Source of the DNA: Candidatus Iainarchaeum sp.
Lineage (GTDB): Archaea > Iainarchaeota > Iainarchaeia > Iainarchaeales > JACQJH01
NCBI GenBank assembly: GCA_016205145.1
Contig: JACQJH010000001.1
Span: 150,001-182,000, forward strand
DNA: 32,000 bases
Direction: 5' to 3'
Made by a program: the position numbers and the translations under genes. How positions within the stretch are numbered: position 1 is the first letter of the stretch; the number at the start of each line of letters is the position of its first letter. Under the pieces are notes generated by a model. That model was not told the origin of the DNA and did not search any database. It worked only from the letters and a program-made list of their open reading frames with translations. Positions 1,258 through 32,000 of the stretch are shown piece by piece.

Positions 1258-2346
1258 TAAGCCTATTGTAGTGCTTTCCCCTTTTTTATTGTTGCTGGTT
1301 TTAAGATTGCGGGCCGGCAAAACGCCTTTTTTTGCAAGGGTTTTGTCTAGCCAAAACAACAAAAAAACACCAATTTTTTTATGTATATGTGCCTTTTTCT
1401 CCCAAAATTCTGCCATCTTTGGCGGTTTTCGTGCTTTTTCACCTGCCCGGACGGGCAAAATTTTACAATTGTTTAACGTTAATCATTATGTGGTGGCTGG
1501 TAATTTTTTATCTGCATGAAGTTAAATTGTTCATGGCCATCCCGCCCTCGCTTGAGCGTTCGTGTGCCTTGCCTTCCAGGCACTTTTTTGCGAAAATCGT
1601 ACTCTTGCGCTTTTTTGCCGCCTGCTCCGGCCCGTTGAACCCAAAAATAGCCTCAAAAACAGGTGGTTTGAAATATGATGTTTTAGGGCATATTTTAGTT
1701 GTTGTTTCAAACCATTTTTCGTCCAAAAATCCGCAAAAAACAACCATTTTGGCATTTTTGGCGTTTTTTTGGCAATCGAGTAGGGTTTGGAAACCAAACT
1801 ATTGCAAAGAAAGCAATATAAAAAAGCGTATATTTTTTCTCTTTAAGATAAATTATTTACGTTTTTTTGTTATGTAGTTGGCTTTTTTGCCTGTTTTTGG
1901 CTTTTTTGCCAAAATGCGCTCACGAATTCATTGTCTTTGATGAATAAACTATCTTGGCAGTTTCATTAGCAGGCAAACCAAATTCTGCCAGAAAACCCAG
2001 CCAAAAACGCTAATCTATTAACCCAATAAAGTGTTTTGCCCTTTGTGCTTTTGCCTTGCCTTTCATTCAGGTCTTGGTTGGAAAGCCGGCCTCGTCTGTT
2101 AGGTGAAGGCGGCGGCCATGCGCAAAGGTGGTGTAGGGGGTGGTGTTTTGGCCGGGGAGGAGAGCCGACATAGCGGTGGAAGCGGGAGAGGAGAGGGAAG
2201 TGTGGTGCCAGGCTTCCGTCCAAGGCAAGCAGCCAGAGCAACCTGAAAGATTTGTCTTGCCGGGTGGCTTTTTTGCCCTTGGGCGGCTATCCGATAAACG
2301 AATTCGGCCAATCTGATGAAAATCTTGCCAAAAAAGCCTTGTTCTT

Positions 2347-4065: not shown

Positions 4066-4124
4066 CCGGCGTGTTTGGCCGGTGAAATAAAAATAGAAAT
4101 GAAAAGCGGTTTTTTTCCCGCTTT
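4066..4124. terminator. Two hairpins between convergent genes (candidate bidirectional terminator)
   Basis: ccggc-gtgtttg-gccgg (4066-4082) and aaagcgg-ttttttt(c)-ccgcttt (4103-4124), with a T7/A7 run, between the CDF stop (4051) and the TRAM stop (4124). Confidence 0.4.
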
Positions 4125-4510
4125 CACTCAAACTTTTCTTCGTCTTCGGGGCTTTCCTCGGACTCTTCTTCCTCGTCTTCGGATTCTTCGGAGTCCTCTG
4201 AGGGTTCTTCTTCGCTTTCCTCTTCGGAGTCTTCTTTTTCAGAGTCCTCGTCTTCGGAGCTTTCGCTTTCCTCGGCTTTTGCCTCGCTTTTGCCGACGAT
4301 TTCGGAGAATGCAACGCTTTTCCTTATCGCGTTGATTTTGACCTTTATCTTGTCGCCTTTTTTTGCGCCCGGCACTATGATGACAAAGCCCTTGATTTTG
4401 GCTATGCCATCCCCTTTCTCGCCGACGCTTTCGATTTCAACGTCGTATTCCTGGCCTTCCTTCACGGGCTTGTCAGCCGGAAAAGAGTTTCTTGGAAATC
4501 TGCCATTCAT
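4124..4510 (-). CDS. TRAM-domain protein with about 55-aa poly-acidic/Ser C-terminal tail
   Basis: KPVKEGQEYDVEIESVGEKGDGIAKIKGFVIIVPGAKKGDKIKVKINAIRKSVAFSEIV is the small archaeal TRAM fold pattern. Tail: SEAKAEESESSEDEDSEKEDSEEESEEEPSEDSEESEDEEEESEESPEDEEKFE. Confidence 0.8.
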   Translation of the reverse strand: MNGRFPRNSFPADKPVKEGQEYDVEIESVGEKGDGIAKIKGFVIIVPGAKKGDKIKVKINAIRKSVAFSEIVGKSEAKAEESESSEDEDSEKEDSEEESEEEPSEDSEESEDEEEESEESPEDEEKFE

Positions 4511-4570: not shown

Positions 4571-5296
4571 TCAGAACCTTCTGCGCGGGGTGAATTCCCT
4601 TCTGTCGCCGAATCTCCTGAACGGCCTTCTGCCCTGCTGCCTTTCTTCGTCTTTTTCCTCGCCTTCCTTGACAATGTATTCGAATTCCACGAGCTTTTCG
4701 TCAAACTTGGCCTCGTCTTTGAGCGCGCCGCTTTTTTTGAGCAGCTCTTTTGCCAGCAGCCAGTATACGAGGGCAAGGCTCTGCCTTCCCTTGTTGTTTA
4801 CCGGTATTACCATGTCAATGCCCCTGAGCGAATTGTTGGTTGATGCGAGCGCAACCACCGGGATTTTCACTACTCCGGCTTCCTTTATGGCCTGCTCGTC
4901 CGCGTCTGGTTCGGTGCAGAGCAAAACTTTGGGTTCGAAGAACTGCGTCGATTCCGGGTTTGAGAATGTTCCCGGCACGAACCTGCCCACGAACGGCCTT
5001 GCCCCGACAACTTCGCAGAATTTTTTTGCCGGCGTCTGGCCGTAAACCTTTCTTGAAACGACCGCGATTTTCGACGGTTCGAATCCTGAAAGGAATTCTG
5101 CAGCCATGCGGATCCTCTGGTCGATTGTTGCAATGTCCAGAACGTTCAGGCCGTCCTTTCTTTTCTTGAAAATGTACCTTTTCATGTCGCCTGACGTGAA
5201 TTTTGTGCCGATGTGGCAGCCTGTCTTCAGGTATTTTTCGCTCGGCACCAGCGTTTTTTCGCCTGCCGTGGTTTCCGTTGTAGTTTCTTCAGCCAT
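4571..5296 (-). CDS. rps2: 30S ribosomal protein uS2
   Basis: Trimmed to ATG 5296 (MAEETTT...KYLKTGCHIGTKF...LNVLDIATIDQRIRMAA...VVSRKVYGQ...PGTFSNP...LLCTEPDADEQAIKEA..IPVVALASTNNSL). The upstream 111 codons are read-through across rpoN. Confidence 0.95.
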   Translation of the reverse strand: MAEETTTETTAGEKTLVPSEKYLKTGCHIGTKFTSGDMKRYIFKKRKDGLNVLDIATIDQRIRMAAEFLSGFEPSKIAVVSRKVYGQTPAKKFCEVVGARPFVGRFVPGTFSNPESTQFFEPKVLLCTEPDADEQAIKEAGVVKIPVVALASTNNSLRGIDMVIPVNNKGRQSLALVYWLLAKELLKKSGALKDEAKFDEKLVEFEYIVKEGEEKDEERQQGRRPFRRFGDRREFTPRRRF

Positions 5297-5310
5297 GAAT
5301 GTATCCGCCC

Positions 5311-5505
5311 TTAAACATTGAATTTCATGAGGTCGTCTATCATTTCCGTGTTGGAGATGAGCATGCGCCTGCAGCAATACCTTGTTATGCCGAGGCTGTT
5401 GAGCACCTGCTCCGGGTTTTCGCCTTTCGCTGTCCTGTCCTTGAACTCCTCGAATGCGTCGGCTATGACCTTGCCGCACGAAAAACACCTTACAGGTATC
5501 ATCAT
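5311..5505 (-). CDS. rpoN: DNA-directed RNA polymerase subunit N (Rpb10 homologue)
   Basis: [21 protein letters not shown]...[20 protein letters not shown] is the canonical RpoN zinc-bundle sequence. Confidence 0.95.
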
Positions 5506-5525
5506 CTTGTATTCCCCCGGAATGT

Positions 5526-5972
5526 TTACCTCTTGCTTTTCTGTTTCTTCTTTCTTGCCTTTTTACCCAAAGGCTTCTTGCTTTCAACCCTTCTGGGGTC
5601 GTCGACGACCATGAGCCTGTCATAGGCAATGAATTTTTTCCTCAGCTTCTCGTCTTTGGTGAATGCCAGAAGCGCTTTTGCAATTGCGGCCCTGCTTGCG
5701 ATTGCCTGTCCCATGAAGCCGCCGCCCTCGACCTTGACGTCAATGTCAACGGTTTTTGCGAGTTCCGGTGCCAACGACAATGGCTCCATTGCTATTTCCT
5801 GCAAGTATTTTGACTCGATTGTTTCGATGCCGCGGCTGTTCACCTTGATTGAGCCCTTGCCAGCGGTTATGGTGGCTCTCGCCGTAGCCATTTTTCTCTT
5901 GCTTTTCGAGTTCACGCCGGTTTTGACCTTTTTCCTGCGCTTCTTTTTTTCCTTTGCGATTTCTTCAGCCAT
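5526..5972 (-). CDS. rps9: 30S ribosomal protein uS9
   Basis: [13 protein letters not shown]...[28 protein letters not shown]...[32 protein letters not shown]. Confidence 0.95.
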
Positions 5973-10177: not shown

Positions 10178-10664
10178 TTTTTCCGCCCCTGAAATGTTCA
10201 AATGCTGTGAACGCGAGGTTTATTGCAGCGCTGAATATCAGCGACAGCAAAACATACCATCCAATCCAGCTTGTCTGCTCGTAAAACACTATGCTCCAGT
10301 TGCTCCCGAACCATGGCACGGGCACGGGCAAATCGATTATTGCCTTGCCGTACAACGGAGGGATGACAAAAACGAAAACTGCCAATGTGACGGGAAGGTA
10401 GAAAAGCAGGTACTTGTTCATGGCCTGCATGCTTTCAAGCGAGATTTCCATCATTTCCTTCTGGACCGCCTCAAGCTCCTTCATTGCGTTCTTGTCATCG
10501 GTTTTCTTCATTAACTCCTTTGCCTTTGCCTGCTTTTCCTTGAGCTTTTTCTGGCTTGCCTTCTGCTTTTTTGTTATGCCCATTTTTTCCTGGAGCGCCC
10601 TCGACCCGATTGCGAGCAGCGCGCTTATCACGGCAATGTCTGCCGCCGGGTTAATGAATGCCAT
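10161..10664 (-). CDS. DUF106 / EMC3-TMCO1-like membrane protein (archaeal Oxa1/YidC-superfamily candidate)
   Basis: TM1, then a Lys/Glu-rich coiled-coil (KKQKASQKKLKEKQAKAKELMKK...LEAVQKEMMEISLESMQAM), then 2 TM helices. Sits at the conserved position downstream of secY. Confidence 0.7.
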   Translation of the reverse strand: MAFINPAADIAVISALLAIGSRALQEKMGITKKQKASQKKLKEKQAKAKELMKKTDDKNAMKELEAVQKEMMEISLESMQAMNKYLLFYLPVTLAVFVFVIPPLYGKAIIDLPVPVPWFGSNWSIVFYEQTSWIGWYVLLSLIFSAAINLAFTAFEHFRGGKNAEKK

Positions 10665-10680
10665 TTTAAAACCCCGACCT

Positions 10681-10756
10681 GATTGAATTGCCGGAATTCA
10701 ATCCCAGAAAATAGCGCAAGCAACCATTATTTGTCATGTAAATGTTATAAAAAGCT
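10681..10756 (-). promoter_or_regulatory. Candidate promoter (TTTTTATAA box) plus 9-bp leader hairpin upstream of the DUF106 gene
   Basis: Minus strand reads AAAAGCTTTTTATAACA (10742-10758). Perfect hairpin gattgaatt-gccgg-aattcaatc (10681-10703) lies 17 nt upstream of ATG 10664. Confidence 0.35.
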
Positions 10757-10823
10757 TTTGACGCGCCGGGCACACTTGCCTCTGCCGCCTCCTGAAATGG
10801 CCTTGGAACCTTTGCCATTGTGC

Positions 10824-10935
10824 CTGTTTTCACTTGAAAAACCTCTCCGAGGCAGGGGACTCCGTCCCCTCGCGCGCCCCTTGAGCCTTTAATGCTGTTT
10901 CTGTTTTTCACTTGAAAAACCTCTTCAGCAGGGGG
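10824..10935 (-). repeat. Family-1 intergenic insert downstream of secY, flanked by a duplicated secY 3' end
   Basis: ttttcacttgaaaaacctct occurs at 10827-10846 and 10905-10924, with extended similarity over 10824-10857 and 10901-10935. Between them lie hairpin AGGGGAC-TCC-GTCCCCT (10854-10870) and a core that is near-identical to 24355-24386. Confidence 0.75.
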
Positions 10936-12299
10936 TGCGTCTGCATGAGCTGTTCCTTTGCCAGATCCTCGTACAGCCTGTAGACTATGCCGACCGTGAG
11001 CAGTATGCCTGTGCCGGATGCCAATGCTCCGACAGTCATGTCGCCGACGCCTGCAAGCAGGGCAACAAAAATCGAGCCGATGATTGTTATGGGCGGAATG
11101 TACTTTTCGAGTATGCTGAGGATGATGCGCTTGTCGCGCCTGAAGCCTGGAATGTACATTCCTGATTTTGAGAGCTGTTCGGCGACCGCTTCCGGCCCCT
11201 GCCCGCCCATGTTGACCCAGAACATGCCGAAGACAACGCAGCATGCGGTAAGCACGATGATGTAAGCCAGGCCCTGCACCAATGCCGCGCTCGTGGCGGC
11301 GTTCAGGCCGATTGTGATAAGGCCTTCTATCAGGGGCAGGCCGCCGACGCTCGGAACAGTTGTTATGTATGCCAAAAAGTCGAACACGCCTTTCAGCAGC
11401 ACTCCGATTACGGGAATGTTGCCGACAGCGAGCGCCCAAATGCGGATGTTTGCAAACAATGCAACCGCAAGTATGACTGGAATGTTTGAAACGTACAGCA
11501 GTTTGACCGGAAAGCGCCCGCCCATGCCGGTTTTTCCCATTGCAATCGGAATGTTGACGTGCATTCCTTCCGCGAACACGATTATCAAAAAAATCGCAAA
11601 GACTATCAGTATGGGCAGTATGAACGAAATGAAGTCAAATGTCTTGACGAACATGAACAGGTATCCGCCGTCTGCAAGCAGTGGATTGAGGCCAAGGCTT
11701 GTTATCAAGTCAATCGGCAATGGCGGCCTGAAAACCTGCCAGAGGAAAGACTGTGCAACGCCGCCCGCAATGAAAAGGCTTATGCCCGAACCTATTCCGT
11801 ATTTTGAAACCACTTCATCCAGGTAAAGCAGTATGAGCGAGCCGAGCGCAACCTGCAGTATGACAAACGGAAGCATGCCGGGATATGGTTTCAGCAGCCC
11901 GGACATCGTGTAGACCGCGGCTTCGAAAAAGCACAGCACTATTGCAAAAAGTTTCTGCAGGCCCTGGAAGTGCGCCTTGCCTTTCGGATCGGTCAGGTCT
12001 ATTTCGAGTATTTTTCCGCCGACAAGCAGTTGCAGTATGATTGACGCCAGGACAATCGGGCCGATTCCCGCCGTAATGAGAGTTCCGATGTTGCTTGCAA
12101 GGATTACTTGCAGTGATTCAAGCTGGCCCGCATTCGCGGCCTGGTCGATGCCGACAACAACCACTGCACCCATTATGAAAAAGAGAAGCAGTGCGCCCGC
12201 GCTCCACATTATTTTCTGTTTCAGCGGCGGCGAGGCTTCAGGGTTTTTGACTTCCGGCAGCAGCCTGTACACCGGTTCCAAAGCCTCGACTATTCCCAT
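10908..12299 (-). CDS. secY: Protein translocase subunit SecY
   Basis: 463 aa, 10 TM helices. Starts MGIVEALEPVYRLLPEV..P; contains GIGPIVLASIILQLL and LLYVSNIPVILAVAL. Sits after L15. Confidence 0.95.
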   Translation of the reverse strand: MGIVEALEPVYRLLPEVKNPEASPPLKQKIMWSAGALLLFFIMGAVVVVGIDQAANAGQLESLQVILASNIGTLITAGIGPIVLASIILQLLVGGKILEIDLTDPKGKAHFQGLQKLFAIVLCFFEAAVYTMSGLLKPYPGMLPFVILQVALGSLILLYLDEVVSKYGIGSGISLFIAGGVAQSFLWQVFRPPLPIDLITSLGLNPLLADGGYLFMFVKTFDFISFILPILIVFAIFLIIVFAEGMHVNIPIAMGKTGMGGRFPVKLLYVSNIPVILAVALFANIRIWALAVGNIPVIGVLLKGVFDFLAYITTVPSVGGLPLIEGLITIGLNAATSAALVQGLAYIIVLTACCVVFGMFWVNMGGQGPEAVAEQLSKSGMYIPGFRRDKRIILSILEKYIPPITIIGSIFVALLAGVGDMTVGALASGTGILLTVGIVYRLYEDLAKEQLMQTHPLLKRFFK

Positions 12300-16630: not shown

Positions 16631-16813
16631 TCAACTGTACTTTGAGAACCCCATCTTCTCCGCGACTTCCTTGAAGCAGCGCCTGCAAATGTTCAAACCA
16701 TACTTCCTTATCAGGCCGGCCCTGACGCCGCACATCTTGCACTTCCTCGCCTTCTTCTCGGCCTTCAAGTCCTTCTTCTGCCTTTCATTGCTGCCTGAGT
16801 TCATTGCGCTCAT
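16631..16813 (-). CDS. rps14: 30S ribosomal protein uS14 (zinc-binding type)
   Basis: ...[40 protein letters not shown]. Confidence 0.93.
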
Positions 16814-16934
16814 TGCACTTCAACCCCGAGCCGATTTCGTCCGGCTGGTTCGACGACGGGTATCTCGCTTTGCTCGATACCCATCTGCGCCGTACTGTAA
16901 AATTCAATTTTTTTCATTGCACGTCCACCCCGAA
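16811..16934 (-). repeat. Family-2 intergenic insert splitting the L5-stop/S14-start junction, flanked by a 20-nt duplication
   Basis: cattgcacttcaaccccgag (16811-16830, carries the S14 ATG) versus cattgcacgtccaccccgaa (16915-16934, carries the L5 TGA): 17/20 identical. The insert carries hairpin agccg-atttcgtc-cggct (16829-16846) and blocks shared with 22950-23048. Confidence 0.75.
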
Positions 16935-22949: not shown

Positions 22950-23048
22950 CGTTTCACCACGGCGATTTCGTCCGCCGAGTCCGACGCACTATGCTCCTTT
23001 CAGTCGCATAGCGCTGGCTCGCGTTGCTCGCATTCTATAACCATCTTT
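22950..23048 (-). repeat. Family-2 intergenic insert between L23 and L2
   Basis: Shares with 16831-16913 the hairpin loop atttcgtc (stem cggcg/cgccg, 22960-22977), the block ctcgcgttgctcg (23018-23030, versus ctcgctttgctcg 16864-16876) and ataaccatct (versus atacccatct). Also has its own hairpin gcactatgc...gcatagcgc (22986-23013). Confidence 0.7.
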
Positions 23049-23503: not shown

Positions 23504-24307
23504 TCACCTTTTGCTTAGGGCGTGGATTGCCTTCTCCGTCCAGATCGTCAACCTGCCGGCCTGGCAGCCCGGCGCAAGCAACACTGCATTCAGGCTGTCC
23601 AAAGCGACTATTTCAACGCCTTCAAGGTTTCTCGCTGCCTTGTAGACTTTCGCCGGCTTTTCCGTCACTATGAGAATGCTTTTCTTTTTCTTGGTCGTCC
23701 TGCCCCTTCTCTTGCCTTTCCCGGCTCTTGCCTTGCGCTTTCCCTTGGCGCTTTCAACGTCCGCGTTCAAGCCGAACTTTTTCAAAACCAAAACCACGTC
23801 TTTTGTCCTCGCGATTTCCGAGAATTTGTCCTCGAACACCACTGGCAGAGAAATTTTTTCATTCAAAACATGCCTTTTCGAGACAAGCTCCCTGTTCGCG
23901 GTTGTCGCAATCGCGGAATCCAATGCAGCCCGCCTCTCCTTCTTGTTGATTTTTTCACCCGTCTTCTTCTCGGCTTTCGGCGGATGCGCCTTCGGTCCGC
24001 CAACGGACTGCGCAACCCTTGCAACCCTGCCCTGCATCAGGTTTCTCCTGTTCTTGAGCCTCGGCAGCCTTGCGTGGCCGACGTTAATGTTCCTTTCGCC
24101 TTGCGGCATATACCTGCTGCCCTGGTATCTCGCAGTATTGTCCCTTCCCGCTGGCCGGTAAGAGCCTTTCGGCTGTTTCGCGTTCGCCTGCGCCGACAAA
24201 ACCGCCCTCTTGATGAGGTCGGGATGGTATGGCGTGGCAAACACCTTCGGCAACGGAATTTCCTTTTCCGTGCCGCCATCCAGTGCCAAAACCCTTGCTG
24301 CCTTCAT
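23504..24307 (-). CDS. rpl4: 50S ribosomal protein uL4
   Basis: MKAARVLALDGGTEKEIPLPKVFATPYHPDLIKRAVLSAQANAKQPKGSY..AG...RGPKAHPPKAEK. ATG 24307 is preceded by GTGAT; the ORF-track start at 24313 is TTG. Confidence 0.95.
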   Translation of the reverse strand: MKAARVLALDGGTEKEIPLPKVFATPYHPDLIKRAVLSAQANAKQPKGSYRPAGRDNTARYQGSRYMPQGERNINVGHARLPRLKNRRNLMQGRVARVAQSVGGPKAHPPKAEKKTGEKINKKERRAALDSAIATTANRELVSKRHVLNEKISLPVVFEDKFSEIARTKDVVLVLKKFGLNADVESAKGKRKARAGKGKRRGRTTKKKKSILIVTEKPAKVYKAARNLEGVEIVALDSLNAVLLAPGCQAGRLTIWTEKAIHALSKR

Positions 24308-24432
24308 AAACAATCACGTTGAAATATCCATTATCACTTTGAAATGTACTCCACGCAGGGGGCTCCGTCCCCTCGCACGCCCCTGAAACGCGGACTGTCC
24401 TCGCACGCCCCTGAACTTGCCTTCATCTAACA
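24308..24432 (-). repeat. Family-1 intergenic insert splitting the L3-stop/L4-start junction
   Basis: Tandem 17-mer cctcgcacgcccctgaa (24371-24387, 24399-24415). Hairpin AGGGGGC-TCC-GTCCCCT (24357-24373). The flanking junction tgccttcat..atcactttgaaatgta is present twice (24299-24348 and 24418-24447). Confidence 0.8.
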
Positions 24433-25488
24433 TCACTTTGAAATGTAATCCACCTGGCTTATGTCCGGCCCTTTCAGGACAACTTTGCGGATGTTCTTGC
24501 GCAGGCCGATGACCCTTTTTGCCGGACCCGGAATGCTGCCCGCCAAAAGCAAAACAGTGTTTTTCGCCAGGCCGTAATTTGAAAAGCCGGCGCCCGGATT
24601 GACTTCTTCCGGCTTTGCAATCTTCAAAATCTTCTTGTTGTATTCCGTGCGCGTGTGATAGCCCATCTGGCCCGCCCTTGCAACAGTCCACATGACTGTC
24701 GAGGGATTCCAAGGCGAAATCGCGCCGACTGTCCTGGTCTTTTTCGCTTTCGGCCTCGCGGTCTTTATGCCGAACCTTTTGACAACGCCCTGAATGCCCT
24801 TTCCCTTGGTGACAGCCTTAACGTCAACGAATTCGGGCGCGGCAAAAACGTCTTCCGCCGAAATTTCCTTTCCAAGCTTTTCCATTGCAAACGCGGTCTG
24901 CTGTCCGACATTGCCTGAAAGCTTGACTTCCGAGACTTCCGGTTTCTTCTTGCCGATGCCCGTCAGATAGGGTTGCGTATGAACGAGCAAACAAACTTCC
25001 AAAATCCTTGCTTTTTCCTTTTCCAAATCGCCGACTGTTTTCGGCTGTTTCACGGTTTCCGCTTTTGCCTTTTTTCCCTCTTTTGCTTCAACGCCTTTTT
25101 TGCCTTCCTTTTTCGCCCCGAAAGAACCGATTTTTCTCGCCAAATGCTTTTCCTGCCTTTCAGCCAAAACGTCAAACAACGCCCTCGAACCATAGCCCTT
25201 GTCGTCTTTCGCGTACGCCCTGATGCCGAAAACCTTCAATGGCGGGGCTTCCAGCACAGTAACAGCTGATGCGACTTCCTGCCCGACGGTCGTGCCCTTA
25301 GGGTGGGTGTCCTTTCCAAGAACGTGCGCCATGCCTGCCTTGTAAGCCAAAAAGTTCAATGGCTTCGAGGCCTCGCCTTCCTTTGCCTGGGGAGCCTTGA
25401 ACGAGGTGAAAGTAGGCGTTTCCTTAAGCGCCCGCTTTCTCGGATAATAAGCCAGGCTTCCGGACCTGGACTTGTGCTTCTTTGTCAT
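24433..25488 (-). CDS. rpl3: 50S ribosomal protein uL3 (first gene of the cluster), with a KE-rich internal insertion
   Basis: MTKKHKSRSGSLAYYPRKRA...FLAYKAGMAHV...VTKGKGIQGVVKRFG...ISPWNPSTVMWTVARAGQMGYHTRTEYNKKIL. Confidence 0.96.
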   Translation of the reverse strand: MTKKHKSRSGSLAYYPRKRALKETPTFTSFKAPQAKEGEASKPLNFLAYKAGMAHVLGKDTHPKGTTVGQEVASAVTVLEAPPLKVFGIRAYAKDDKGYGSRALFDVLAERQEKHLARKIGSFGAKKEGKKGVEAKEGKKAKAETVKQPKTVGDLEKEKARILEVCLLVHTQPYLTGIGKKKPEVSEVKLSGNVGQQTAFAMEKLGKEISAEDVFAAPEFVDVKAVTKGKGIQGVVKRFGIKTARPKAKKTRTVGAISPWNPSTVMWTVARAGQMGYHTRTEYNKKILKIAKPEEVNPGAGFSNYGLAKNTVLLLAGSIPGPAKRVIGLRKNIRKVVLKGPDISQVDYISK

Positions 25489-25722: not shown

Positions 25723-25974
25723 CTAATCGTAAACGTTCCGCCTGTGCCCGGCTTTTGTGACCAGAATCTGCTTTTTGCCGAAGTCCAAATCGGCAATAAC
25801 CCGATAGTCTCCGACCCGCAGCTTGTAGTCCTGCCTTCCCTGCAACCGTTCAAAAAACAGTTTTGGCTCTTCTTTGGCTTGCCGGAGTTTTGAAAAAATG
25901 CGCCTTTTTGTTTCCTGCTCAAGCCCGTTCAGTTCCCTGAGGGCTTTTTTGTCAAAAATCAGTTCGAAAGCCAT
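25723..25974 (-). CDS. RelE/ParE-family type II toxin
   Basis: 83 aa: MAFELIFDKKALRELNGLEQETKRRIFSKLRQ...LQGRQDYKLRVGDYRVIADLDFGKKQILVTKAGHRRNVYD, the typical RelE/ParE pattern. Directly abuts the upstream antitoxin (TGAATG). Confidence 0.85.
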   Translation of the reverse strand: MAFELIFDKKALRELNGLEQETKRRIFSKLRQAKEEPKLFFERLQGRQDYKLRVGDYRVIADLDFGKKQILVTKAGHRRNVYD

Positions 25975-26223
25975 TCAGAGTCCCAGAATCTTTCTGGCTT
26001 CCTCTTCTGAATAGTACTGGCCTGCTTTGATTCTTTTTCTCGCTGCCTCGATTTCAAGGGCGGTTTTCCTGCTCAATTTCGGGTTGTTTTTCGCGGTTTT
26101 GCCTATGAAAACAAGCTTTCGGATAATCTCGTCGAAAGTTTCGCTTTCGTATTCGCGGAACGCTTCAAGGTTTGACTTTGTTTCGGTTTTCAGTTTTATG
26201 GTTGTTATAGTGCTCATGCGCAT
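25975..26223 (-). CDS. Type II antitoxin (archaeal DUF217/VapB-like N-terminus plus RelB-like C-terminus)
   Basis: 82 aa: TTIKLKTETKSNLEAFREYESETFDEIIRKLV...EIEAARKRIKAGQYYSEEEARKILGL. Sits immediately 5' of the RelE-like gene. Confidence 0.7.
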   Translation of the reverse strand: MRMSTITTIKLKTETKSNLEAFREYESETFDEIIRKLVFIGKTAKNNPKLSRKTALEIEAARKRIKAGQYYSEEEARKILGL

Positions 26224-26257: not shown

Positions 26258-29200
26258 TTATCCTATGCAGGTTTGCCCCGCCACGAGCGTTGCCTCGAAA
26301 TCGTCCAGGCTTGTTCCGCCCGAGCCCTGCTTGGAATAGACTGTCAGCGGGTTCCAGAAGAAAACGCTTTTGTCGCCGGAATCCGTGAGGCAGACTTGCC
26401 CGTCTTTGACCAATCCGAAAACGTCGTTCAGTTCGCTTACCGTGTCATTGTTCGACTTGCTGTTCTTTTGCATTCTGCCCAATCCGCCCAAATGGACTGA
26501 CGTGCTGTGCTCGCCGTCCATTGTGTTGAATGAAAGCTTTCCTTCCGCCGGCGAAAGCGATTTGAGCACGAAGTTTGACTGTGCCGGCGCGTAAAGGATT
26601 GTTTTCAGGAACACGTCTCCCGTTTTCACTGCATTCAGCCAGTCGATGGCGTAAGCGTTTTGCGCTCCGCTTACAGGGTCTGCGGTCTGTCCGCGCCTGT
26701 CTGGCCTGAGCCTGAAAGCGTTTGTCGAATAATCGCCTGTGAAGTCCCTGCAAGCCGACAATCCCGACCAGTAGCCTAAAACCGAGCCCACGACTTTCGG
26801 AGAATCGTTTTCGAACAGCTGGTAGTATGCCGAGAACCTGTCGTTCTTCTGCCCGGCAACGTTCATTTTCATCACGACTGGGGTTGCGTAATTCGGCGAG
26901 AACGTCAAAAGCTTTTCATTTCCCGTGCCCTGCCTTGCGATTGAAAGCAGTGCTCCCCTTGTGTCTGCCGCGCCGTTGATTTTCGCGGCATCGGTTTCAA
27001 TTTTTGTCGCAAGCGTCTGCAATGCGTTCGAGTTTTCAACGGGCTTTGCCTCGACGATGTTCTGTCCGGCTTCGGTTGAAATTTTGACCGGCGCGCCCTG
27101 GTTCAGGTAATTGAGGCCATAGCCCTGCCTGCCGTTGTCAGTGCCGATTCCTATCTGTCCATCGAAGGGCAGGTAATAGAACATTGACGCGGGGTTCGGG
27201 TAATCGGCATAGCTGAATTTGACTGTTGCCTGCGCTTTAGGCTTTCCATCGGAGCCGAAGAATTTCCAGTCGTTTCCGAAAACAACGCGCAATTCGGCGT
27301 CGTAAACGCCGGCATCAGGCAGGACATCCGAGTCGGGCGTGTACCTGAAGTCAAGCTTTGACGTGTCGTTGAAATAATCCGCAAACCTGCCCGTGGCATC
27401 CGAGTCAAAGTAGCTTGGCGTGTTGTAGAATGTCTTGTTCGAATAAAACTGCGCGAAGTCCTTCTGGAAGTCATCCGAATAACCGTCCCTTATCAAATTG
27501 ACGCGCGGTCTCAGAATCCTGTGCAGTGTTTCCTTGTCTGGCACGTCTTTTGTCCAGTGCGGTTCTCCTTGGTCCTGGCTGACGAGCTGGCCGAAGAAGG
27601 GCAGTTCCCTGTCATAGAATGCTTCAAGGCCAGTAACTCCCGGTGCAATGTCGAAAGTCGTATTGTTCAGCCAGCACTGCGAAGCGTTTTCCCGCGCAAT
27701 GTTCCAGAAAATAACTGAAATTGCCTTTGTTGCATACTTTTGCGCTTCCGTGCCTGAAAGGCCCTGGATGAACGCGGAGTCAAAGCCTGCAACAACCGAG
27801 TACGGGTCAATGTTTTTTGGCAGCTCTCCTGCATCGAAAACAAATTCTTTCGTCGTGCCCCTGGCAATGCTTGATTCCTGGCCAGCAAGGCTTTTCGTGA
27901 AACTGTTCTGGGGCAGGCCGTTCGCCGACAACACAACCTTTGCCGTCCTGTCCGCGTCGGAGAGGTTTTCGACCTGCACCTTGAAAGTGAAATGGTTTTC
28001 ATTCGCCGCGTCCTTTTCCAGCAGGATTTTCTTGAAGTAAACTTTTCCGCTTTGCGATTCGCTTTGGTTTCCGTTGCTGGTGTTCTGCTCCGCATACGCT
28101 TTTTTCAAGGCGTATTCCGGGTCGGTCGGGCAGGCAAACGAGGGGTTTGCGTTCAGGAAATCGCGCAGGAACTGCATTCTTTGCGTCAAGGCAATCGAGA
28201 ACTGCGTTGCGTCGCAGTAAATGCCATCCGGATTGTCTGCATCGCAGCTCCAAGCATTGATGTTGTTTGTTCCATCAGTTGACCATTTCCAGTTCAAATT
28301 GATTTTCGGCAAGGCTTTTTCTCCGGTTACGCCCCTTCCCTCGCATGCCGCGCTTGCAACGTCCGCGCGAATCGGCTCCCATTCCTGCACTTCTTTTGTC
28401 TGAACGCGGATGTGGAATTTTTGCGAGTAATGCCTTTCGCTTGTGCCGGAGCATGCGCCTTCATCCGGGCCATTGCCGATGTTGAACTGGTCGACAGTGC
28501 CGCTTGAACAAATGACATCATAGCTTTGGTCGCCGCTTCCAGTCCTTCCTTTACTGCTGTCATGCAATGCGTCGCCGTTGATGTGCTCGGTTGCCCCGAC
28601 TTCGAGTATGGCGAATTTTGGCGTGTCAGCCTGGTAGCCGTCATTCGAGAAAACGATTTCCTGCATTTCAACGTCTCCTCCGCGGCCTTCCTCAAGGTTC
28701 CATTTCGGCCTGATTTTGCCGTCCAGGCCGCTGACCTTGAGCTGGTCGTCGGTTGAATCCGGCGGAACCATTTTGTTGCCGTCTTTCGTCACAACCGTCA
28801 TGCCGGAAATGTTCAGGACATAATCGTTCATGGGGTTGACAGCCGAAACGTCATGGCAGGAATACATCTGGTCGGCAAGCCAGTTGACAACCATGTTAGT
28901 AATCCAACTCGCAACAAGCGAAATGCCGAAGCTTGCGGCCAGATTGCCTAGCTGTGAAAGCTGGCCTTGGGCGGAATGGAGTTTGGCTTGGGTTTGTTCT
29001 AATTTTCCATATAGGTCTCCCGATGCTTCTTGTCCCGTGCCACCAATGGCATCTATTTCGCCCCTAATGCTTGCCACTTTTGCGCTTAACGTGGCGATTT
29101 TCACAAGCGACCCCAGCATCGGCAGCGCGGCGTTCAGGAACTTGTAGGTCGAGTATGCGACGTACATCAGCGTCGCGGTCTTGATGTATTGTTTCACGTT

Positions 29201-32000
29201 GTCCCTTTCGCTGTTTGCAACGTTTTCCCACACGCAGCCGTCCGCTTTCACGTGCACGACTTCCTGGTAGGCCGAGTTCACAACCGTTGTCTTGTCCTGC
29301 AGGCTTGGGAAAACCTTGAAGTCATATCTCAGCAGTTCGAAATAGTCTTTGCCTCCGAACGGCTCGCTTGCTTTCGGCCTGTCCGGCGGGCTCGTTACAA
29401 GCACGTCGTCCTTGCGCAGTTTTCTCGGAGCGTTTCCTGCAAGGTTGCCGTAAACGTTTATGCCGTAAATGCCTGAAATGTCGGAATTGTTTGTCACTTT
29501 GATTGTTTTGGATTTCTGGCTTGGCGTCAAAAGGAAATCCTCTTCGTCAAGCGACAACCCCCCTTCCGTTCCCCCCGCGCAGTGGCTGTCGTTATAGCAG
29601 AGTTTTATGCGCACGTCCTTGTTGAGCGAAGGGCATTTTTCCGTTGAAATTGAAAGTTCGCCTTCAGGGTCGAAGAAAACCGTGTCGGGGTTGTCCTGCA
29701 GTTCAAGTTTTCCGTCTTCAGGCGTGTAGGCTATGCACGTTGAAAGGTCTATTATGCTGATTGTGCCTTCAACGTCCCTCACTCCCTGCACTTCGTCGAA
29801 TCCTGATTGTTTTTTCAGCAGGCCTTTCACTTCAATCTTTACCGCAGTCGTCTCGTTTTGCGCGCCGGGCTTGGCTGTAAAGACAAAGCTTGCAACCAGG
29901 CTTTCCCCGGAATTGATTTTCGCCTGCACGTCAACCGGCACATCAGGCGTCAGGGCGTATGTGCCGATCGGCGTGCCGTCGATTGTTTTGAGTGAAACCG
30001 AAACGTCGCCCTGGTATGGCGCGGGGTGGTAAGTAAACTGCAGTCCGTCAAGCGCTATCGGCGCGCCTTCAAACTGGCAGTTGTTTGAAATGTTTGAAAT
30101 GTGCGGCCCGGTTTTTCCGGCATCGGTTGAATCGTTCCATTCGAAGTTGTCGACTGAAACGCATTTGTCGGCAGGAGTTTCCCCGAAGCCGATTGCAACG
30201 TTCAATGGAATGAACACGTCATAGGTTTTTGCGAACGCCTGGTTCTGGAACGTGAGCCAGACCCACCCGTCAAGGCTTTCCTGCCTGTCGACAATGCCGG
30301 CTGAAACGAGCTGTGTCTTGATTATGTCCGCGAGCTCTTTTGCCTGCAAGGGCTTTATTTCCAGGCCGTTAGTTTTTGTCTGCAGGAACGAAAGCATTGC
30401 AGTATAATCCAGTACTCCGAAAAACCTTGAGCTTTTTTCCTTGTAGTCCGATTTCGTCAGCTTCAGTGTTTCGCCGATGTGGCTTGTCGCAGTGAGAATC
30501 GTGGAAATAGTTTCGTTGGTTTTTGCCCGCGTGTCAAGCCTTGACTGCAGTTTTTCCGGTTCGAATGAAAGTATCTGGCCTGAAACAGTCAGAGCGAGCG
30601 GCTTGTCGAGCCAGTAGCCGATTTTTTCGGCTCCGAAAACAATTTGCGTCAATGGCGAGCTTGCCGGAACATGCACAATAACTTCGCCGTTGTCGCTGCT
30701 CATGCAGTTGTTCCCTGAAACGCATGCGAGCCAGCTTTCGCTTGCATCGGCAAGAATTTTTTTTGCCTTGACAAGCACGCCGGAAAGCGGTTTTCCCGAA
30801 CTGTCTTTGACTGTCACAAGAATGTCTTTCTGTTCGAATGCGTTGACCGCCGAGGGTTCGACTGCCAACGCCATGTCTTCCTTGCTTGCCGTCTTGAATT
30901 CTATTTTTTTCCTGTAAACCGTCTGTCCGCCTGAAACAATGCGCGCTTCAAGGCCTGAGCTTTCAAGCTTTTTGCCTTCAATCCACAGCTTTGCGAGAAC
31001 GCTTTTGCCCTTTGAAAAGCCGCCAAGCGGAATTGCCGGCGACTTGAATGCGTTGAAATTGGCGTTCGCGTTTTCATGCGAGTCCGCGTCAAGCAGCGAG
31101 TATTTGCGGATGAGAATGCTTTCGTTGTCCGCACCATGCGAATCGACGCTTGCAATTATGAGCTGTATGCCGTTGAATTGCGCGTCGGAATTGTTTTTGA
31201 TTACAAAGTTCAGTAGGTATGGGCCGAAGACCGTCAGAGCGTACGGCTTGTCGTCGAGGAAAAGGTTTGACTGCTCGTCCAAAACATCCTCGCCTGCATA
31301 GCAGAAGTCCTGGCCGCATGTTACGGGCACGCCTTCCAGGAATTCGTTGATTTCAAACGTCTGCGCGAACAATTCCTTTTTCGCCGCGGTTTCACGCGCG
31401 CTTCCCAACCCGGCATCGGCCGGCATCCTGCTGTAAGTGTCTCCGCTGGCGGTCCAGGCCCGGTAGTGCATTGGCAATGGTGTCATCGGCGCAGTGCTTT
31501 TCTTCACCACGACCTCGAACGCCGCGTAAACCACTTCCGGTTCGGTTGTTGAAAATTTCGCATCCGCCCACTTGCCGACGCTTGCAGAGCTTTCAAGCAG
31601 GTTTTCAGCGTCGCTTCCAAGCGGCGGATTGAATGCGGAACCTTTCTCTATCTTGGCATTGCCGGCATCTATTTCGCCGATGTAAAGCGCGTCCCCTGAA
31701 ACAGTGTTCGTGTCGCCGGTCCTGAAATGTATGCCTGCCTGCTGGACAGCTGAGGGCAGTTTGAATTTGAAGAGTGCGAGATATCGTTTTCCTGATTCCA
31801 TTGCCTGGGCTTCGGAATAGTTTTCAAGCATTCCTTCGAACGAAACGCTTGGCTGGGAAATGCTGCCTTGCAATGGCAGTTCGGCCTTGAATTCCGCGAG
31901 AGTGTCGGGCCACAGCATTTTCGGGATTGTCTGTGCCTTCACGTGGTTGGGCGAGGTTATGACTGCAAACACTTTTCTTCCGGCCCTGATTTTCTGGGAA
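26258..32000 (-). CDS. Giant Cys-rich putative surface protein (more than 1913 aa; N-terminus outside window)
   Basis: Single uninterrupted frame from TAA 26258-26260 to the window edge; codons stay open beyond the ORF-track GTG at 31972. Many spaced Cys pairs and beta-rich segments, including a prealbumin/CarboxypepD_reg-like stretch (ILVTVKDSSGKPLSGVLVKA...SDNGEVIVHVP). Central hydrophobic hairpin at about 28870-29180. No catalytic motif recognised. Confidence 0.85.
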   Translation of the reverse strand, partial: SQKIRAGRKVFAVITSPNHVKAQTIPKMLWPDTLAEFKAELPLQGSISQPSVSFEGMLENYSEAQAMESGKRYLALFKFKLPSAVQQAGIHFRTGDTNTVSGDALYIGEIDAGNAKIEKGSAFNPPLGSDAENLLESSASVGKWADAKFSTTEPEVVYAAFEVVVKKSTAPMTPLPMHYRAWTASGDTYSRMPADAGLGSARETAAKKELFAQTFEINEFLEGVPVTCGQDFCYAGEDVLDEQSNLFLDDKPYALTVFGPYLLNFVIKNNSDAQFNGIQLIIASVDSHGADNESILIRKYSLLDADSHENANANFNAFKSPAIPLGGFSKGKSVLAKLWIEGKKLESSGLEARIVSGGQTVYRKKIEFKTASKEDMALAVEPSAVNAFEQKDILVTVKDSSGKPLSGVLVKAKKILADASESWLACVSGNNCMSSDNGEVIVHVPASSPLTQIVFGAEKIGYWLDKPLALTVSGQILSFEPEKLQSRLDTRAKTNETISTILTATSHIGETLKLTKSDYKEKSSRFFGVLDYTAMLSFLQTKTNGLEIKPLQAKELADIIKTQLVSAGIVDRQESLDGWVWLTFQNQAFAKTYDVFIPLNVAIGFGETPADKCVSVDNFEWNDSTDAGKTGPHISNISNNCQFEGAPIALDGLQFTYHPAPYQGDVSVSLKTIDGTPIGTYALTPDVPVDVQAKINSGESLVASFVFTAKPGAQNETTAVKIEVKGLLKKQSGFDEVQGVRDVEGTISIIDLSTCIAYTPEDGKLELQDNPDTVFFDPEGELSISTEKCPSLNKDVRIKLCYNDSHCAGGTEGGLSLDEEDFLLTPSQKSKTIKVTNNSDISGIYGINVYGNLAGNAPRKLRKDDVLVTSPPDRPKASEPFGGKDYFELLRYDFKVFPSLQDKTTVVNSAYQEVVHVKADGCVWENVANSERDNVKQYIKTATLMYVAYSTYKFLNAALPMLGSLVKIATLSAKVASIRGEIDAIGGTGQEASGDLYGKLEQTQAKLHSAQGQLSQLGNLAASFGISLVASWITNMVVNWLADQMYSCHDVSAVNPMNDYVLNISGMTVVTKDGNKMVPPDSTDDQLKVSGLDGKIRPKWNLEEGRGGDVEMQEIVFSNDGYQADTPKFAILEVGATEHINGDALHDSSKGRTGSGDQSYDVICSSGTVDQFNIGNGPDEGACSGTSERHYSQKFHIRVQTKEVQEWEPIRADVASAACEGRGVTGEKALPKINLNWKWSTDGTNNINAWSCDADNPDGIYCDATQFSIALTQRMQFLRDFLNANPSFACPTDPEYALKKAYAEQNTSNGNQSESQSGKVYFKKILLEKDAANENHFTFKVQVENLSDADRTAKVVLSANGLPQNSFTKSLAGQESSIARGTTKEFVFDAGELPKNIDPYSVVAGFDSAFIQGLSGTEAQKYATKAISVIFWNIARENASQCWLNNTTFDIAPGVTGLEAFYDRELPFFGQLVSQDQGEPHWTKDVPDKETLHRILRPRVNLIRDGYSDDFQKDFAQFYSNKTFYNTPSYFDSDATGRFADYFNDTSKLDFRYTPDSDVLPDAGVYDAELRVVFGNDWKFFGSDGKPKAQATVKFSYADYPNPASMFYYLPFDGQIGIGTDNGRQGYGLNYLNQGAPVKISTEAGQNIVEAKPVENSNALQTLATKIETDAAKINGAADTRGALLSIARQGTGNEKLLTFSPNYATPVVMKMNVAGQKNDRFSAYYQLFENDSPKVVGSVLGYWSGLSACRDFTGDYSTNAFRLRPDRRGQTADPVSGAQNAYAIDWLNAVKTGDVFLKTILYAPAQSNFVLKSLSPAEGKLSFNTMDGEHSTSVHLGGLGRMQKNSKSNNDTVSELNDVFGLVKDGQVCLTDSGDKSVFFWNPLTVYSKQGSGGTSLDDFEATLVAGQTCIG

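Follow-up and report, generated by a model that had tools for sequence, protein, structure and literature searches.

Short hairpin cores bracketed by long direct duplications of local sequence at gene junctions of an archaeal ribosomal-protein operon

The window, by which we mean the whole stretch of 32,000 nucleotides analyzed here, carries an S10/spc/alpha-like ribosomal-protein operon on the minus strand of an archaeal genome. Pfam identified SecY, EMC3/DUF106, L3, L4, S13, S9, and S2 among the window ORFs scanned; most ribosomal-protein genes were identified from precomputed gene-table annotations only, and the full gene order was taken from identical Logan contigs. The closest SecY relatives of the window organism are only 62-65% identical and, where named, are Candidatus Diapherotrites or ainarchaeum MAGs, and from these names we take the organism to be a DPANN archaeon. 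A duplicated-junction structure is found in three of the five operon gaps longer than 60 nt. The features at the secY, L3/L4, and L5/S14 junctions are listed in Table 1. Because the window is reproduced base for base at all three junctions in independent Logan assemblies of three sequencing runs, these structures are not an assembly artefact. No presence/absence polymorphism was seen in the three runs containing the organism, where all Logan contigs are identical to the window.

Table 1. Positions of the genes, duplicated segments, inserts, and cores at the three junctions of the window
Feature	Positions	Strand	Details
secY ORF	10908-12299	minus	SecY Pfam E=1e-61
Candidate archaeal BRE/TATA, CAAAAGC TTTTTATAA	10745-10760 (TATA-like TTTTTATAA 10745-10753)	minus	read from sequence; outside the element
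secY target duplication, copy 1	10905-10924	minus	functional last five secY codons + TGA, AGAGGTTTTTCAAGTGAAAA
secY target duplication, copy 2	10827-10846	minus	non-functional secY end, 20/20 identical to copy 1
Inserted segment between secY-end copies	10847-10904		54-58 nt, depending on choice of duplication boundary
secY core, CAGGGGACTCCGTCCCCTCGCGCGCCCC	10853-10880	plus	28 nt, shared; covariance model 54 bits, E=1e-10
secY hairpin arms AGGGGAC/GTCCCCT	10854-10860 and 10864-10870		7-bp GC stem, 3-nt loop TCC
L5/S14 junction	16810-16933	minus	same architecture around an unrelated insert
L5 end, TCGGGGTGGACGTGCAATGA	16914-16933		repeated 18/20 at 16810-16829
L5/S14 insert	16830-16913		84 nt, unrelated to core
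L5/S14 candidate relay ORF	16810-16917	minus	35 codons; ATGA overlap with L5 stop and S14 start
L3/L4 copy a	24418-24453	minus	functional L3 end (TGA stop 24433-24435), then pseudo-L4 start (ATG 24424-24426)
L3/L4 partial core	24388-24415	plus	degenerate second core in tandem; covariance model 11 bits, E about 1
L3/L4 full core, CAGGGGGCTCCGTCCCCTCGCACGCCCC	24356-24383	plus	54.5 bits; 2 mismatches vs secY core
L3/L4 copy b	24333-24354	minus	pseudo-L3 end with stop, 21/22 identical to copy a
L3/L4 copy c	24299-24330	minus	older, diverged junction copy with real L4 Shine-Dalgarno and ATG 24305-24307
L3/L4 candidate relay mini-ORF, MKASSGACEDSPRFRGVRGDGAPCVEYISK*	24334-24426	minus	30 codons; pseudo-L4 start, both cores, pseudo-L3 stop

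A preliminary description of this DNA, made from the sequence alone, had reported that the last codons and stop of secY are repeated downstream of the gene. This was borne out: exactly two occurrences of the 20-mer TTTTCACTTGAAAAACCTCT lie in the window, one in each secY-end copy, and none of 100 shuffles gave any match. The true end of secY (...L L K R F F K stop) is the upstream copy in the order of transcription. The looser similarity described over about 34 nt is visible in a local alignment, but beyond the 20-mer it is not significant (permutation P about 0.18). The secY-EMC3 gap is 243 nt long and exceeds a single-copy junction by 78 nt. Between the copies lies the core that had been described as shared with the L3/L4 locus, and this held up as well, GGGGACTCCGTCCCCTCGCGCGCCCC at 10855-10880 differing by 2 mismatches from 24358-24383, with no match in shuffles. 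The 7-bp hairpin is likewise present in the minimum-free-energy fold of both strands, although for the 112-nt secY region in its entirety the folds are not more stable than those of shuffles (z = -1.3 and -1.9). Outside the element, the candidate promoter plausibly serves the EMC3/DUF106-L34e genes.

At the L3/L4 locus, the order on the minus strand is copy a, partial core, full core, copy b, copy c. Copies b and c form a plain tandem duplication without filler. The last 17 nt of the partial core (24399-24415) are an exact repeat of 24371-24387, the two lying 28 nt apart, and this 17-nt duplication within the insert surrounds an 11-nt filler. In the L3/L4 hairpin, one pair reads G-T (plus strand) or A-C (minus strand); this is the sole stem substitution and is uncompensated. 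L3 and L4 are tightly packed and probably translationally coupled. The motif TTTCAA(N)GTGA is found at five window sites vs 0.26 expected, and all five are secY and L3 end copies; the excess could stem from a target preference, or simply from similar C-terminal codons together with the Shine-Dalgarno-like GTGA. A scan of the window for local direct repeats gave one further case besides the core loci, the L5/S14 junction, and mononucleotide shuffles of the window produced 0-1 local repeat of such quality each.

JGI metagenome contigs were scanned with a 26-nt degenerate pattern that matches the two window cores, and exactly one of them, L036, gave a match. The sequence of this locus is also present in L037 and L039, from ENA assemblies, and in all three the core lies between cutA and an ADP-forming acetyl-CoA synthetase gene. 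The L037 core is sense to transcription, whereas the window copies are antisense. On both sides it is flanked by GGGGG(C/A)GGGTCAGGAGTTCCCTAGAA, 25/26 identical, with a period of 66 nt. Here the duplication consists of 26-27 nt of purely local spacer or leader sequence and not of a gene end. The duplicated gene end, which had been proposed as a feature of the element, is therefore a property of the window loci, where gene ends are duplicated because the insertions sit at gene junctions. A relative, L040, whose CutA is 71% identical, aligns through both flanks, lacks the core and has only one copy of the duplicated sequence: GGGGGAGGGTCAGGAATTCCCTGGAA occurs once in L040 vs twice, around the core, in L037, L036, and L039. 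L037 and L040 are a filled and an empty site, and the pair shows insertion with a target duplication of about 26-27 bp. A search with the translation of the L037 spacer and N terminus returned distant acetyl-CoA synthetase fragments only, and no closer filled or empty sites.

In three SecY relatives that were fetched (L044, L045, and L051), the secY-EMC3 gaps are 117, 98, and 68 nt long, contain TATA-like runs, and lack the core. In L045 and L051, L5 overlaps S14. With short, core-less secY gaps and overlapping L5 and S14 genes in the relatives, the enlarged junctions of the window are thus derived. A conserved terminator kept at the same position in all relatives, the outcome that the preliminary description had named as fatal to a mobile repeat, is not what these short, core-less secY gaps contain. 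A duplication in L045 (SUI1/p29) was not trusted, its insert containing 10 Ns.

Exact-match scans of 185,579 representative genomes (GTDB), JGI metagenomes, and IMG/VR gave no further copies. With an 18-mer of the core, the representative genomes yielded 30 single matches, in GC-rich bacteria, whose similarity ends at the 18-mer and which we attribute to chance; two scans of IMG/VR viral contigs gave three chance matches in one and none in the other. Searching with a covariance model of the core brought up no diverged copies, either in the window or in the loci of the relatives; the model scored the full cores at 52-55 bits vs at most 16 bits for everything else searched. The 30-aa mini-ORF product matched one low-complexity repeat protein (P0241) among the representatives, which was judged irrelevant. 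The known copies are two and a half in the 32-kb window and one in another metagenome contig, that is, three full copies and one partial only; the core is near-identical at the three loci (26-27/28), and the family may be small or recent.

The direct repeat on either side of the core is different and locus-specific for each copy, with a length of 20-36 nt and 95-100% identity. The target duplications are 20-24 nt at secY, 22-36 at L3/L4, 26-27 in L037, and 20 at L5/S14, and with L5/S14 included the identities are 90-100%. The near-perfect state of the duplications indicates recent insertions. The insert measures about 40-58 nt or, with one and a half cores in tandem, about 70 nt, and the range becomes 40 to 84 nt when L5/S14 is counted. 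Beyond the 28-nt core, the insert ends differ among the loci and are ragged. Terminal inverted repeats are at most 6 nt long; CAGGGG...CCCCTG is clean at L3/L4 only, imperfect at secY, and absent in L037.

Insertion is thus shown by the filled and empty sites, and target duplication is seen at three core loci; the core occurs in both orientations and is lineage-specific. The third copy, the empty site, and the core-less relatives support the earlier proposal that the repeats are a family inserting by rules of its own. A core acting as a DNA-level element fits the difference in orientation, antisense in the window vs sense in L037. Our preferred explanation, which we hold at roughly even confidence, is that the 28-nt core and the few variable bases flanking it form an ultra-short mobile element, non-coding and non-autonomous, that is active in a DPANN (Diapherotrites-like) lineage. 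A trans-acting enzyme would cut the target with a wide stagger of about 20-36 bp, the element would be joined into the opened target, and filling of the single-stranded gaps would leave it bracketed by a direct duplication of the local sequence. To our knowledge, prokaryotes only very rarely show target duplications of 20-36 bp, and there is no accepted mechanism for them.

All six frames of the core are free of stop codons, for which reason the core would be translatable as a short relay ORF. At the three core loci the insert has a period of 78, 99, and 66 nt, each divisible by three, and in L037 the spacer is wholly open and in frame with the synthetase gene, so that gene callers read through the core copy. 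The ATG of the L3/L4 relay ORF lies 6 nt after the L3 stop codon (an offset of 9 nt when first bases are compared), and 26 nt separate the stop codon of the relay ORF from the real L4 ATG. Translational coupling in Haloferax and Escherichia coli is reported to weaken beyond a spacing of about 30 nt (PMC12548453). The chance that relay ORFs are in frame and open at both L3/L4 and L5/S14 is about 0.02 jointly, for two loci. That the duplicated start and stop codons frame relay ORFs which preserve translational coupling is suggestive only, as judged from reading frames. DPANN genomes are among the most compact known, and ribosomal-protein operons are among the places least tolerant of insertions. 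Most insertions in such a compact genome would be lethal, and a long duplication would permit residence in a tight or overlapping junction: the upstream copy would preserve the stop of the first gene, the downstream copy would preserve the ribosome-binding site and start of the second, and the relay ORF would pass ribosomes to the next gene. Only those insertions that rebuild stop, Shine-Dalgarno, and start around a translatable body would then survive in these junctions.

We rank as the main rival of the mobile element a templated insertion during repair or replication, in which a break or stalled fork is followed by microhomology-guided template switching and local re-copying, with the core as filler and no transposon involved; we regard this as a possible but subordinate explanation. 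The GC-rich hairpin with GGGG/CCCC ends anneals strongly and would therefore be a favoured donor. A generic duplication-with-filler process could account for the same architecture around the unrelated insert at L5/S14, for the filler-free tandem copies b and c, and for the 17-nt duplication around the 11-nt filler at L3/L4, and to that extent the mobile-element explanation is weakened. Variable bases at the core boundaries point in the same direction, as does the motif C(A/T)GGGG(A/G) beside the duplication, which resembles the left end of the core (GCAGGGG at secY, CTGGGGA in L037/L040). However, permutation tests gave no significance to flank similarity reaching into the core ends, and this similarity is weak at L3/L4, leaving microhomology as a weak hint only. 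For 28 nt to be reused three times almost unchanged, in either orientation and in two genomic contexts or more, a special abundant donor would also be required, and none was found; duplications of 20-36 nt at four of four junctions suggest one enzymology. A host regulatory hairpin, be it a terminator, an RNA-stability or processing site, or a protein-binding site, would instead be kept by selection at the secY and L3/L4 sites, with the duplicated flanks incidental. The stable 7-bp GC stem just upstream of the TATA-like box after secY and the strong conservation of the core between loci speak for it. The preliminary description had called the secY hairpin with its T5 run terminator-like, and this finds no support: no hairpin-plus-T-run site is found in 10600-11000, the T5 run is part of the duplicated secY codons, the core in L037 is turned the other way relative to transcription than in the window, and the L3/L4 copy lies within the operon, at a point where a terminator would do harm. 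In archaea, transcription can terminate without a hairpin. The core is missing at the same positions in relatives, its only stem substitution is uncompensated, the secY region folds no better than shuffles, and Rfam gave no match in the window at the gathering threshold (one E=6 noise match near secY, none at L3/L4). The positions and orientations of the copies likewise speak against any function of the core as RNA. The regulatory hairpin is largely refuted and we consider it very improbable. After inspection and ARAGORN analysis, we also discarded a C/D-box sRNA and a tRNA fragment as readings.

Two further explanations invoke a defined enzyme, and neither a transposase nor a cas gene nor a reverse transcriptase was found among the window ORFs scanned with Pfam. 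A Cas1-type integrase, acting as a casposase or through ectopic CRISPR adaptation, would insert a duplex between opposite-strand nicks and duplicate the intervening target. The target repeat-short insert-target repeat order at gene 3′ ends is shared with CRISPR spacer acquisition, neo-CRISPR integration, and casposons, and the dimensions are of a repeat-spacer-repeat kind (L037, insert about 40 nt and duplication 26-27 nt; secY, insert 54-58 nt and duplication at least 20 nt). From work on the A. boonei casposon, integration into gene 3′ ends is reportedly a known casposon habit. Also in favour of this integrase, casposases integrate oligonucleotides from 7 nt to 4 kb, but their duplications are site-specific and ruler-set at 13-14 bp (PMC8464041). 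The duplications here are 20-36 nt at three different, unrelated targets, outside the 13-15 bp at one target by which a casposon is recognized, and the insert lengths vary from 40 to 84 nt. In CRISPR adaptation the repeat is constant and the inserts vary, whereas here the same insert recurs at three sites and the flanking repeat differs at every locus, without fixed length, the opposite of what CRISPR logic would give. No cas genes turned up among the window ORFs scanned, and none of the collections scanned held an array with the core as its repeat, each locus giving a single match. We therefore judge a Cas1-type origin improbable. Long duplications of variable length, here 20-36 bp, are most typically left by target-primed reverse transcription, and a small RNA could be reverse-transcribed at a nicked target in the manner of a SINE, its oligo-U tail giving a T-rich 3′ end. 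Three of the four inserts have a T-rich end in core orientation (GTTTCTGTTTT at secY, AATTTTTT at L5/S14, GTTTAA in L037), but these ends partly overlap the duplicated target and the L3/L4 insert has no T-run. We know of no retroposition mechanism of the SINE-like kind in archaea, and this pure inference appears extremely improbable to us.

Set beside known systems, the mobile element that we prefer is best classed as an unusual kind of small non-autonomous mobile repeat: it is tiny, has very long target duplications, and resides in ribosomal operon junctions, presumably by way of regenerated gene signals. It resembles MITEs in being short, non-coding, and apparently dispersed, in having a target-site duplication (20-36 nt at three of three core loci, and the L040 empty site), in occupying intergenic or junction DNA, and in its presumed mobilization in trans. 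It differs from MITEs in size, at about 30-40 nt (core 28 nt, minimal insert about 40 nt) vs the usual 50-500 nt or more, in its ragged ends without convincing terminal inverted repeats, and in duplications of 20-36 bp vs 2-10 bp. Long, variable target duplications are shared with IS1549/IS1634, whose direct repeats of 8-514 bp make them the only prokaryotic transposons that we found documented in or above this range, with no mechanistic model, and the IS1634 family is reported to be frequent in Euryarchaeota (PMC2266710); these, however, are autonomous elements of 1.5-2 kb with DDE transposases. MIRUs are mobile repeats in operon junctions with an internal ORF coupled by stop/start overlap to the host genes and minimal polar effects (PMC12548453). 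The L3/L4 and L5/S14 relay ORFs, whose ends lie near the flanking stop and start codons, would work alike on paper, a resemblance of function only. A MIRU carries its own ORF, whereas here the start and stop are supplied by the duplicated host junction, and MIRUs form tandem arrays in mycobacteria and have no sequence relationship with the core. Like REP/REPIN sequences, which are small, GC-rich, imperfect palindromes of 20-40 nt scattered after genes in extragenic DNA, the 28-nt core has a 7-bp GC stem and a 3-nt loop, but REPs are high-copy, RAYT-dependent, and without target duplication. Rickettsia palindromic elements are tolerated in frame in coding sequence, to which the six open frames of the core and the L037 copy in frame with the downstream gene correspond, although those elements are 100-150 bp long.

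A more far-reaching reading, which we put forward as unlikely, is that these loci are the first sighting in DPANN archaea of a distinct class of ultra-short mobile DNA (about 30-40 nt), with an integration mechanism hitherto undescribed for prokaryotic mini-elements, either a wide-stagger integrase with spacer-acquisition logic or target-primed copying of a small RNA, that gives 20-36-bp duplications. Such an element would be adapted to extremely compact genomes: with all its frames free of stops it would carry a translated relay ORF, and it would be self-insulating because the duplication regenerates stop, Shine-Dalgarno, and start. The responsible enzyme, if it is a dedicated one, could be a new kind of integrase. 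Inserts of this type produce spurious small ORFs and misplaced start codons in annotation. If the relay ORFs are translated as proposed, they would be a natural example of relay-ORF translational coupling in archaea, and an element living in ribosomal-protein operons would show how selfish DNA persists in streamlined genomes.

The L5/S14 junction in the window follows a duplication-insert-duplication arrangement with an 84-nt insert that is unrelated to the core, the 28-nt hairpin-forming repeat, and carries its own 7-bp hairpin, GGGTATC...GATACCC. Because the L5 end and its ATGA are duplicated around this insert, a 35-codon ORF arises that has an ATGA overlap with both L5 and S14; in relatives, L5 and S14 overlap directly. 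Within the core-bearing insert between L3 and L4, the exact direct repeat CCTCGCACGCCCCTGAA yields one and a half cores in tandem, surrounding 11 nt of filler; the duplication-insert-duplication arrangement recurs here in nested form. The coordinates of these and other features are collected in the table.

Coordinates of duplicated junctions, repeats and neighboring features
Feature	Location	Details
Duplicated L5/S14 junction	window 16810-16933	L5 end and ATGA overlap present twice, 18/20 identical
Exact 17-nt direct repeat	window 24371-24387, 24399-24415	copies 28 nt apart, within L3/L4 insert
TTTCAA(N)GTGA sites	window 10830-10839, 10908-10917, 24314-24324, 24334-24344, 24433-24443	
SUI1-end copies	L045 2956-2986, 3074-3104	
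cutA-to-acetyl-CoA-synthetase spacer	L037 960-1150; L040 1117-1260	
DUF7557 and ParE-toxin-like gene pair	window 25723-26223	minus strand, immediately upstream of L3
1904-aa ORF	window 26258-31972	minus strand
Low-GC stretch	window 1600-2300	GC 0.42
Short direct repeats, TCCTCGTCTTCGGA...	window 4137-4273	acidic-coding; 3'/C-terminal part of ORF 4124-4510

Five TTTCAA(N)GTGA sites are present in the window (0.26 expected), all of them at the duplicated secY and L3 ends, where the motif may reflect either a target preference or a codon/Shine-Dalgarno context common to these ends. On contig L045, from a relative whose SecY is 62% identical to that of the window, the end of the SUI1 gene overlaps the beginning of the gene for RNase P p29 and recurs (27/31) 118 nt downstream. 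The insert between the two copies contains a 9-bp hairpin, GTGCCATTC...GAATGGCAC, and a 41-aa ORF is called across it; 10 Ns lie within the insert, which may therefore be a scaffolding artefact.

L4-covering contigs from all three Logan sequencing runs stop exactly at window position 22993, which a neighboring contig overlaps by approximately 20 nt, suggesting a repeated k-mer or variant site. The small gene pair beside the ribosomal operon looks like a toxin-antitoxin pair. The 1904-aa ORF matched no Pfam family, and the contig collection contained no exact record of it. The low-GC stretch holds several TGGCTTTTTTGCC / GCTTTTTTGCC copies spaced 270-390 nt apart, and the unannotated minus-strand ORF 4124-4510 lies downstream of a long, 352-aa S2 gene (4571-5629). 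No adenylate kinase gene is present between secY and the EMC3/DUF106 gene (window 10665-10907), nor at this position in relatives L044, L045, and L051; the gap appears to contain a separate TATA-like candidate promoter for the EMC3 gene.

The spacer between cutA and the acetyl-CoA synthetase gene was compared between metagenome contig L037, which contains the core, and L040, a relative with an empty site. In both organisms the spacer is open and in frame with the synthetase gene, about half of the substitutions between them fall at third codon positions, and the L040 synthetase gene lacks an ATG at the usual start. The synthetase may carry an N-terminal extension. If so, the L037 element would be a 22-codon insertion in frame.
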